DNA of 64,000 bases, from NCBI RefSeq assembly GCF_003334315.1, contig NZ_QOWR01000017.1; one strand, given 5' to 3'. The position numbers and the translations under genes were made by a program. The notes beneath the pieces were generated by a model that was not told the origin of the DNA, searched no databases, and saw only the letters and a program-made list of their open reading frames with translations. Source of the stretch: Escherichia coli (lineage in GTDB: Bacteria > Pseudomonadota > Gammaproteobacteria > Enterobacterales > Enterobacteriaceae). This document shows positions 54,942 to 62,584 of the stretch, piece after piece (position 1 is the stretch's first letter; every line of letters starts with the position of its first letter).

Positions 54942-56006
54942 TTAGCGGGAGTAACTGACGGCAGCGGGCAGTGAAGGCGGGGAGAACAACAGATCGCTGA
55001 ATGCACGCTGTGAAAGTTTTCTTACCAGCAAGCCCGCAACAGTACAGATGAACAAACTGACAAAGGGATAAACCAGCAGGAGTGTCAGTTCGACTTGCGG
55101 CGACCAGCGTGCTGCGTTCATTTGCGCAAGCAGAGTTAAGCTGAATATTTCAACCAGAATGCGATGGGTGGTGTAGATAGCAATGGTGTTGGAGCCAATC
55201 ACATTCAGCAGGCTGGTGGAGCGCATACCGAATCGTTGCTCGTATTGATAAAACAGCTTCATGATCACCACAATCGATACCAGCGACAACAGCAGCGAGA
55301 TAGTAAACAACCAGGCACCGACCGCCAGAACGGTAAGCAAAGAAGCCATCAGCAGATGGCGGCGCAACGGCACCTCTTTAACACAGGTCATTATTGTTGC
55401 GCCAAACCATGCGCCAAGGCTGTAATAAGGCAAATTGCGGATCACACTGTTCATTCCCCACCACGGCGTGGGAACGAAATTAACCGCCACACTCAGCAGT
55501 ACAAACAAGGCGAATAGTGGCAGCGCCAGACGGCTAAAAATTTTACATACCACGAAATAGACAATTAACGCATACAGATACCACAAGCTGGTGCTGGCGG
55601 TGATCATCCCGTGCAGGAACTCACCGGTGGAATCGGCATAAGCGGCATTGCTTAAATCGCGCTCAGGTGCCAGCCACTGGTTCAGCGCACTTAACGCCAG
55701 CCACTGCACCACGCCCCAAAGCGCCAGCACCCAGAAGATGTTCCAGATCCGTTTATCGAGACAATTTCCCCACGGTACGCTGTCGATATAGCGGCGAATC
55801 AAATAGCCGGATATAAAGAAAAAAACCGGCATACGAAAGGGGGCAAGGTAAAGATTGAAATAGATCCAGCATTTGCTCAGGACTTCCGATAACGGATGCT
55901 GAAAAGTGGTCAGATGCGGATAAAAGGTAATGACCGAGTGATAAATCACCACCAGACAAATACATAACCCTTTGATCTGGTTAATCCATAGCTCTTTTTG
56001 TTTCAT
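54942..56006 (-). CDS. ycfT: inner-membrane acyltransferase-family protein YcfT
   Basis: 354-aa multi-TM ORF. Confidence 0.82.
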   Translation of the reverse strand: MKQKELWINQIKGLCICLVVIYHSVITFYPHLTTFQHPLSEVLSKCWIYFNLYLAPFRMPVFFFISGYLIRRYIDSVPWGNCLDKRIWNIFWVLALWGVVQWLALSALNQWLAPERDLSNAAYADSTGEFLHGMITASTSLWYLYALIVYFVVCKIFSRLALPLFALFVLLSVAVNFVPTPWWGMNSVIRNLPYYSLGAWFGATIMTCVKEVPLRRHLLMASLLTVLAVGAWLFTISLLLSLVSIVVIMKLFYQYEQRFGMRSTSLLNVIGSNTIAIYTTHRILVEIFSLTLLAQMNAARWSPQVELTLLLVYPFVSLFICTVAGLLVRKLSQRAFSDLLFSPPSLPAAVSYSR

Positions 56007-60360: not shown

Positions 60361-61200
60361 ATGCTGTCGCGTCGGGGTCATCGGTTAAGTCGTTTTCGTA
60401 AAAATAAACGCCGCCTGCGCGAGCGTTTGCGTCAGCGTATTTTTTTCAGAGATAAAGTGGTGCCGGAAGCAATGGAAAAACCAAGAGTACTCGTACTGAC
60501 AGGGGCAGGAATTTCTGCGGAATCAGGTATTCGTACCTTTCGCGCCGCAGATGGCCTGTGGGAAGAACATCGGGTTGAAGATGTGGCAACGCCGGAAGGT
60601 TTCGATCGCGATCCTGAACTGGTGCAAGCGTTTTATAACGCCCGTCGTCGACAGCTGCAGCAGCCAGAAATTCAGCCTAACGCCGCGCATCTTGCGCTGG
60701 CTAAACTGCAAGACGCCCTCGGCGATCGCTTTTTGCTGGTGACGCAGAATATCGACAACCTGCATGAACGCGCAGGTAATACCAATGTGATTCATATGCA
60801 TGGGGAACTGCTGAAAGTTCGTTGTTCACAAAGTGGTCAGGTTCTCGACTGGACAGGAGACGTTACCCCAGAAGATAAATGCCATTGTTGCCAGTTTCCG
60901 GCACCCTTGCGCCCGCACGTAGTGTGGTTTGGCGAAATGCCACTCGGCATGGATGAAATTTATATGGCGTTGTCGATGGCCGATATTTTCATTGCCATTG
61001 GCACATCCGGGCATGTTTATCCGGCGGCTGGGTTTGTTCACGAAGCGAAACTGCATGGCGCGCACACCGTGGAACTGAATCTTGAACCGAGTCAGGTTGG
61101 TAATGAATTTGCCGAGAAATATTACGGCCCGGCAAGCCAGGTGGTGCCTGAGTTTGTTGAAAAGTTGCTGAAGGGATTAAAAGCGGGAAGCATTGCCTGA
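60361..61200 (+). CDS. cobB: NAD-dependent protein deacylase (sirtuin) CobB
   Basis: 279-aa ORF with [10 protein letters not shown] Rossmann motif and Zn-binding cysteines; in-frame internal ATG at 60472 would give a shorter form. Confidence 0.92.
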
Positions 61201-61319: not shown

Positions 61320-62107
61320 TTATCGTTTACTCGTCAATAACAATGCGGCAATAAACGTACAGACACCAATTAGCCCTGCCCAGAGTGGCGATATTCTGGT
61401 AATCGCAAAGCTATTATCGATATACAAACATAAAGCCTGATAACCCATATTGGCAATAGTCATCGCCACTGCAAATTTTAACGCATAAATAAAACGAGTC
61501 GTGTAGTAAAAGATCCTGGAAAATAAGATAAACGTCGCAGCCCAGGCGATAAAACCTAATGTGTTGGTGCTGCCGGGGGGAGCATTTTCATGCTGTTGTC
61601 CTGGATGCGGATAATACGTTAGTGGCGGCGTCGATTGTTTTAATATCTGTGCTTGTAGAACAGCCAATGCATTATTGATTCCCTGATACCAGAGATCTGC
61701 ATTTAAATAAGCCAGCGTGTGATTTTCTATCAGAAGGCCGAGATGTTTATCGTCCAGACCACTTTCAACCTGGCCGTTGGTGATCATAATTAACCGTGGT
61801 TCGCGGGTAGTAAATAGTAACAGAACACTTCCTTTTACATCACTCAATGAAGATGACGCATGCGCCAGCATCGCTTTACCATTTTGTCTGAGACTGGCTT
61901 CATTATTAATGTCGGGTAAAACCACAATAAACGGTGCAATTCCCGTTTGTTGGCGAAAAAGCTCGGCTTATGCGCGATCTCTTCAGCATCTGGTACAGTA
62001 CCGGTAACGTCCGTAAAAAGTGTCTTCATTATTGGAATTAATGGCTTGCTGGCTGCTGTCAGAGGCAGGAGTATCAGTAAACTGAGCAGTATAATGAATT
62101 TTTTCAT
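61320..62107 (-). pseudogene. ycfZ: inner membrane protein YcfZ, apparently frameshifted
   Basis: One gene split into ORF 61844..62107 (87 aa) and ORF 61320..61925 (201 aa) in adjacent frames; junction at 61962-61970 in a 2-nt homopolymer; restoring one base gives a continuous 262-aa protein. Confidence 0.7.
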
Positions 62108-62565
62108 GGGCGGGACTTCCGTTTCCTGCGTGATTTTTTAGAGGAGGGCATACTTATTAATAAACCGACGGCGATAAAAATAACGCCCATAATGCCGATA
62201 AACCCCCATTTAAAAAAATTAACCCACGGGTTATTTATCTCAGCCTTTTCAGGATGCCCGGGAGAATAATAAACATTAACTTTATCGCCTTCGCTGTCTT
62301 CATAAAAATCGCTGCCGATACTCGAATTGAAAATTAGCGTGTAATCTGGCGTCGGTCGAAAGGCAACGACGGGATACCACGAACCATCTTTACCCGTGCG
62401 ATGAGAATGACTGGAGTGCCAGACGGTATCAACAATGACGCCTTCGGTATGAATCGCGTCTTTGCTATAGGTGAACTGGTTATAAAAGACAACAACAGAA
62501 ATGAGGATCAGTACCAGACCGATACCGAGGAATATACGAAAGAAAACTTTACTGTCCTGACTCAT
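62104..62565 (-). CDS. ymfA: inner membrane protein YmfA (DUF3592)
   Basis: ORF 62104..62574 trimmed to [12 protein letters not shown] (153 aa); stop overlaps the ycfZ start. Confidence 0.82.
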
Positions 62566-62584
62566 TAGCCACATCCTTGCTAAC

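Follow-up and report, generated by a model that had tools for sequence, protein, structure and literature searches.

YcfZ and its mentions in the literature

The closest described counterpart of the locus considered here is the intact YcfZ of Escherichia coli K-12 (b1121, YCFZ_ECOLI, WP_000713462.1), whose gene occupies the same place in the genome and has the same nucleotides save one base. Neither YcfZ nor its neighbour YmfA found a match in NCBIfam or PADLOC, and a phmmer search of the PDB returned no solved structure related to YcfZ by sequence. A relationship can be drawn to the TPM family (PF04536), which is named after TLP18.3, Psb32 and MOLO-1. Searching the literature, we found no functional study and no experimental data on YcfZ; the names ycfZ and b1121 appear in lists only. 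The gene is listed as 'homologous to virulence factor' (PMC3091784) and as part of a 'virulome' (PMC9787326), it was variably present by hybridisation (PMC2749873), it was a hit in a CRISPRi placental-barrier screen (PMC12940985), and some of the phage-resistant mutants obtained from an avian pathogenic strain carried mutations in it (PMC12057083).

In the window, by which we mean the whole stretch of 64,000 nucleotides of E. coli DNA analysed here, ycfZ is split into two reading frames. We conclude with high confidence that ycfZ (b1121) has become a pseudogene here, of recent origin and inherited clonally, through the loss of one A:T pair at codon 48.

The ycfZ locus and its reading frames

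The listing of open reading frames (ORFs) gives two overlapping ORFs on the minus strand, one of 87 aa (61844..62107) and one of 201 aa (61320..61925), which share 82 nt; these are the coordinates at which the original prediction had placed them. The features of the locus are as follows:

61320..62107, minus strand: ycfZ pseudogene, from the native ATG to the native stop (788 nt; the intact gene has 789)
61968..61969, minus strand: position of the lesion, with AA in place of the AAA of intact alleles, located by allele alignment and whole-region comparisons
61844..62107, minus strand: truncated frame from the native ATG, 87 aa, ending at TGA
61320..61925, minus strand: residual ORF of 201 aa in the original downstream frame, from an internal GTG that is codon 62 of intact YcfZ
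61968..61970, minus strand: TAA closing the downstream frame just 5' of the junction
62104..62565, minus strand: ymfA (DUF3592), upstream operon partner, intact in the window
60361..61200, plus strand: cobB, neighbouring gene, convergent with ycfZ

The TGA of ymfA overlaps the ATG of ycfZ (ATGA; junction CCCATGAAAA), and the gene order potD-ymfA-ycfZ, converging on cobB, matches that of annotated relatives. The disrupted gene thus lies exactly where an orthologue of YcfZ (b1121) is expected, between ymfA and cobB and downstream of potD. As regards ymfA itself, the mechanically called ORF starts from an ATG at 62574 (156 aa), while the RefSeq form comprises 153 aa and starts at 62565.

The sequence around the lesion reads CATAAGCCGAG on the minus strand (61972..61962). 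When one A is added to it, an ORF of 789 nt is obtained, encoding 262 aa, and this restored translation is 100% identical over its full length to WP_000713462.1, the product of the annotated intact ycfZ CDS of strain 720632; that a single extra A would fuse the two frames into a protein with the length of intact YcfZ had been proposed from the sequence and was borne out. An entry of the protein collection also has exactly the restored sequence, 'Inner membrane protein YcfZ ... YCFZ_ECOLI' being one of its names. Direct alignment places AAA in the intact alleles opposite AA in the window; the affected codon is codon 48 (AAA, Lys), and one A:T pair is gone. Comparing a 931-base region with the closest intact alleles gave 99.9% identity over a 932-base span, which fits a single gap, and L005 and L019 agree on this. 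With one base as the sole difference, chance plays no part in the match to the intact alleles. The rest of ycfZ is unchanged relative to the intact allele of the closest relatives and, since no further change has built up in the gene, its inactivation must be recent and the pseudogene young.

The downstream frame was predicted to run back to a stop at 61968-61970, and a TAA is indeed found at 61970..61968. The overlap of both frames is therefore a stretch of 124 nt (61967..61844), and because this TAA bounds it, any rescue of the frame is confined to 61967..61844. Within the 87-aa ORF, residues 1-47 are native and include the hydrophobic segment 5-23 as well as about 25 residues of the mature part, whereas residues 48-87 are out of frame and constitute 40 unrelated residues up to the TGA. 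The earlier impression that both ORFs read as plausible membrane protein consequently does not hold for the last 40 residues of the shorter ORF.

Occurrence of the disrupted allele

A probe of 61 nt centred on the junction matched 4,269 complete-genome records. The exact AA junction was present in nine of them, belonging to eight strains, and missing from the other 4,260, a carrier being counted only if identical over all 61 nt, so that carriers with an additional nearby SNP would be missed. The remaining best matches, including that of K-12 MG1655, span 62 bases, one above the probe, as the AAA allele does, and the longer 62-base context is also found in unrelated strains, for example K-12 MG1655, E. 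coli C and J53. E. coli as a rule has the intact AAA allele, from which the disrupted one is set apart by an indel, as a pseudogene would be. The arrangement in two ORFs is accordingly not native to the reference strains; its presence there as the native state would, according to the original prediction, have refuted the frameshift.

The carrier strains were isolated from different hosts: RCAD0514 from a duck in China, AHM9C68I and AHM9C61I from chicken, JX21CE33 (two records) likewise from chicken, 2017.13.01CC from a human in Viet Nam, 30EVA2 from a human in Singapore, 23CRST042 from a human and ES6 from a bullfrog. In addition, the draft assembly GCA_001268345.1 agrees with the window in every one of 3,606 bp (100% identity) and has the deletion too. 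In the three carriers whose annotation was checked (RCAD0514, 2017.13.01CC and 30EVA2), RefSeq (PGAP) labels the same allele as a pseudogene, 'ycfZ, TPM domain-containing protein, frameshifted', and every sampled close relative inspected that lacks both the junction and an IS1 in ycfZ is annotated with a single frame of 789 nt. The frameshifted ycfZ allele is thus already known, as public annotation flags it in sister strains.

The frameshift-specific 87-aa product is absent from the protein collection and could not be used for counting carriers; we think that, where two ORFs overlap, gene callers discard the shorter one.

Other disruptions of ymfA-ycfZ and the question of selection

On 170 public contigs, an ORF with exactly the 201-aa sequence has been called as a 'hypothetical protein'. 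It is not specific for the allele of the window, as the eight places examined (L006 to L013) show at least six different lesions upstream of it:

AAA to AA, the allele of the window: L006
T5 to T6 in CACTTTTTACGG: L007 and L010
T5 to T4 in the same run, CACTTTTTACGG: L011
T5 to T4 in GAGCTTTTTCGC: L008 and L012
deletion of 11 bp: L009
end of an IS1: L013

For most of these other lesions, 14-15 SNPs in 3.6 kb separate the background from the window, and the lesions are for this reason regarded as independent events. Furthermore, in complete genomes near-identical to the window, all of them with the AAA background, IS1 has inserted at five different sites across ymfA-ycfZ (L014-L018; window equivalents 61768/61780, 61799/61807, 62011/62020, 62145/62153 and 61429/61437). 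The strains concerned are 2018-02-2CC, WCHEC050613, 2017.02.04CC, 600029 (at the 3' end of ymfA) and N18-04097, and in the 2.3 kb fetched their genomes are otherwise identical to the window, the AAA/AA base aside. The metagenome contig L013 has the same IS1 site, 62020, as one of them.

The pair of genes is also unusual in other respects. With a GC content of 0.43 in comparison to 0.516 for the window, ymfA and ycfZ (61320-62574) are AT-rich; they are unusually diverged within E. coli, 664 records showing only 80-90% nucleotide identity, and by megablast 577 of the 5,426 genomes have no match to ymfA-ycfZ, while five matches lie on plasmids. Judged from these sequence comparisons, ymfA-ycfZ gives the impression of an accessory or horizontally exchanged gene pair within a core region. 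The further frameshifts and IS1 insertions found in ycfZ suggest dispensability, and the gene as a whole resembles an accessory one that can be spared and is disrupted now and then.

It could be argued that the inactivation of ycfZ was selected, for example to evade a phage, toxin or host factor that acts through this envelope protein, and is not a matter of neutral decay. The independent IS1 hits on ycfZ or ymfA at five sites in near-identical backgrounds would speak for this, as would the at least four other frameshift alleles on other backgrounds and the spread of the deletion lineage over hosts and countries. Such disruptions are rare, though: nine deletion records and about seven IS1 records among approximately 4,850 genomes with the gene are what would be expected for a dispensable gene in a huge sample. 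Moreover, IS1 favours AT-rich targets, and the region is AT-rich (see above). A mutation in ycfZ was also seen among the phage-resistant mutants of the avian pathogenic strain (PMC12057083), but the authors of that study state that mutations seen only once may be hitch-hikers. Since ycfZ is disrupted in well under 1% of the genomes, we see no evidence of selection, and adaptive loss seems to us an unlikely explanation. A slightly less likely one still is the more general proposal that inactivation strikes ymfA-ycfZ repeatedly in those commensal and multidrug-resistant E. coli that are close to K-12, and that the loss of this envelope protein with its TPM domain would be of advantage to them, for example where a phage or toxin uses it; the basis of the proposal may be seen in one spreading clone with a 1-bp deletion, IS1 at five sites and several other frameshifts. 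Should it be true, the function of this uncharacterised gene, a regular entry in lists as a 'putative virulence factor', could be approached for the first time.

Clonal inheritance or sequencing error

The original prediction had offered two explanations for the split gene, a pseudogenising mutation or an error of sequencing. The latter would mean that the strain truly has AAA and that the assembler lost one base of the homopolymer. Single-base homopolymer indels are the commonest artefact of long reads, and an example that resembles such an error was met among the disrupted ycfZ sequences: in 3.6 kb, L008 (LR134228.1) has three 1-bp gaps but not a single mismatch, and this suggests that its gaps are homopolymer errors of long-read sequencing. 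This record also has a truncated ymfA. In the window, however, the run is only three bases long, and the same allele was obtained from eight other strains by different laboratories as well as in the draft assembly mentioned above.

The genomic background of the carriers points in the same direction. When a flanking stretch of 25 kb was compared with 5,431 records, eight of the nine carrier records were within the top 20, for a second 25 kb the best single-piece matches were carriers, and the carriers all come from the window's own tight lineage. A systematic error is unlikely, because the allele is confined to this one clone while unrelated strains are listed with one extra base in the same context. 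The allele also nests perfectly with an independent substitution in fabF, 28 kb from the lesion (position 33893; G in the window, A in the derived state): the derived base occurs in eight of 5,389 records, and all eight are deletion carriers. Clonal inheritance follows from every record with the fabF SNP also carrying the ycfZ deletion. The deletion without the fabF SNP is found in the window and in ES6, the latter being the carrier record missing from the fabF list; this nesting of the SNP within the carriers fits descent, with the deletion first and the fabF change later in a sub-lineage. A SNP in pabC (34150), considered as another marker of the carrier clade since carriers have T and two non-carriers have C, was discarded as uninformative: T is present in 1,827 records and is the common state.

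A comparison over 63.9 kb with TOE3, a near-identical genome that lacks the deletion, revealed eight SNPs, one in-frame deletion of 9 bp and one 1-bp indel. As the lesion in ycfZ is this sole 1-bp indel, the assembly of the window is not prone to homopolymer errors. To a sequencing or assembly error as the explanation we give almost no credence; on the evidence of the sequences compared, the deletion appears to be genuine and inherited. The shared allele, its restriction to one lineage, the nesting of the fabF SNP and the lack of other 1-bp indels decide between the two explanations offered at the outset in favour of a real mutation.

Some further differences set the window strain apart, and among the 5,426 complete genomes there is no exact match to the window. 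Six SNPs (at 796, 7967, 8479, 15730, 29118 and 51994) distinguish the window from both 30EVA2, a carrier, and TOE3, a non-carrier. By the fabF marker, the window strain would branch near ES6 at the base of the carrier clade, because the window lacks the SNP common to eight of the nine carrier records. In ycfT (54942..56006, minus strand), which encodes a protein of the acyltransferase family, a 9-bp in-frame deletion at 55644-55651 lies between GGCATTG direct repeats and removes three residues from YcfT (SNASNA to SNA; 354 aa in comparison to 357). The best 40 genomes listed span nine more bases here, as the longer form of ycfT does, and the four genomes inspected base by base have this longer form; the deletion looks private to the window strain. 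Bases 1-96 of the window have the sequence of an IS1 end and are the same as the IS1 ends in L013-L018. Both of the closest relatives, 30EVA2 and TOE3, align to the window only from base 97 onwards, a position that, by coordinate arithmetic, is intergenic between yceO and yceJ in TOE3. The window strain seems to have an IS1 in this yceO-yceJ intergenic region, which is absent from 30EVA2 and TOE3.

Consequences for the protein

The restored YcfZ matches the Pfam profile TPM_phosphatase (PF04536) with residues 41-152 (E = 2.1e-6, 28.2 bits; model positions 13-123 of 125), and it contains two strongly hydrophobic segments of 19 residues, a signal-like one at the N-terminus (5-23) and another one at 242-260. 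Against this background, the following course of events may be proposed. The AAA of codon 48 would have lost one A:T pair in a single event, in the recent ancestry of a small lineage of E. coli that by now has reached poultry, humans and a frog. Read from the native ATG, the sequence leaves the frame after Lys47/48 and runs into a stop after 40 unrelated residues, so that the product from the native start is devoid of nearly all of the TPM domain (41-152) and of all C-terminal hydrophobic segments.

Regarding the 201-aa ORF, no Shine-Dalgarno sequence precedes its internal GTG in the upstream 20 nt (CGGGAATTGCACCGTTTATT). Because the GTG start lacks a ribosome-binding site, this ORF is probably not translated; if it were translated after all, the product would be without the N-terminal export segment and would miss 21 residues at the beginning of the domain match. 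The net effect is likely a loss of YcfZ function, as the frameshift precedes nearly all of the TPM domain and the C-terminal hydrophobic region. A polar effect would not be expected, since the ymfA-ycfZ pair ends with ycfZ, which is convergent with cobB.

Recoding, split gene and phase variation

Two overlapping frames may also be a means of expression. A programmed or leaky -1 frameshift within the 124-nt overlap might restore a near-full-length, functional YcfZ; the shift required is indeed -1, the relaxed motif C UUU UUC is present within the overlap (61961..61955), and slippage there would yield a protein that is three residues off the wild type (KPSFF in comparison to KAELF). Nevertheless, the overlap contains no perfect X XXY YYZ heptamer, only this relaxed CTTTTTC, and inspection of the sequence upstream of the motif revealed no Shine-Dalgarno-like stimulator. 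The 96 nt downstream fold with a minimum free energy of -21.8 kcal/mol, in comparison to a mean of -19.9 for shuffled sequences (z = -0.60), and 48 of the 200 shuffles fold equally well. The arrangement in two frames is not conserved either, as 4,260 of the 4,269 matching records lack the junction of the window, and the same T run sits in another frame of the intact gene, so that the motif was not selected for slippage. Programmed -1 frameshifting was therefore rejected, on the grounds of the missing slippery heptamer, the lack of a significant downstream structure and the lack of conservation, and a functional protein restored by recoding is highly improbable. A trace of near-full-length protein might conceivably arise at the weak, near-slippery C UUU UUC (61961..61955).

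Equally improbable in our estimation is a split gene, in which both ORFs would be expressed, each giving a functional polypeptide of its own. It is true that both are open and that the longer one has been called on the 170 contigs mentioned above. However, the 87-aa product retains only 47 native residues, while the 201-aa ORF starts at a GTG without a ribosome-binding site, does not encode the hydrophobic segment of the N-terminus and leaves out the first 21 residues of the match to the TPM domain; in addition, the arrangement is a recent derivative of the intact gene without any compensatory changes. A split functional gene was hence considered and rejected. A phase-variable locus was likewise rejected, since a tract of A3 in the intact alleles and A2 in the window is too short, and no mixing of on and off states was seen within the clone, where every record with the derived fabF SNP has the deletion and the off state is stably inherited.

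Implications

The frameshift in ycfZ, taken as the young pseudogene described above, is an ordinary one that matters little. The pattern of two ORFs is nonetheless a true marker of a strain lineage and not a defect of the assembly, and the sequence of the window can be trusted at ycfZ. In combination, the AA allele and the fabF SNP could mark a clone found in poultry, humans and a frog. Attention should also be drawn to 'virulome' screens, which, being based on presence or absence, would score the inactivated ycfZ as present in the carrier strains. The repeated natural knock-outs indicate that ycfZ is dispensable in these strains.

Comparison with known systems

The window's locus shares with dnaX and with insAB' of IS1 the presence of two overlapping frames on one strand, the downstream one at -1, but differs from both in having no slippery heptamer, no stimulatory structure and no conservation among relatives. 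Among the members of the TPM family (PF04536), the restored YcfZ takes its place by a modest match to the model (28.2 bits over residues 41-152). In comparison to the intact YcfZ of K-12, the window lacks one A in codon 48, and its product ends at 87 aa. The closest likeness is to the carrier strains: both the allele and its junction are identical to those of RCAD0514, 2017.13.01CC, 30EVA2, AHM9C68I/61I, JX21CE33, 23CRST042 and ES6, whereas the window differs from the carrier records by six private SNPs, by its private 9-bp deletion in ycfT and by the absence of the fabF SNP that eight of the nine records have.
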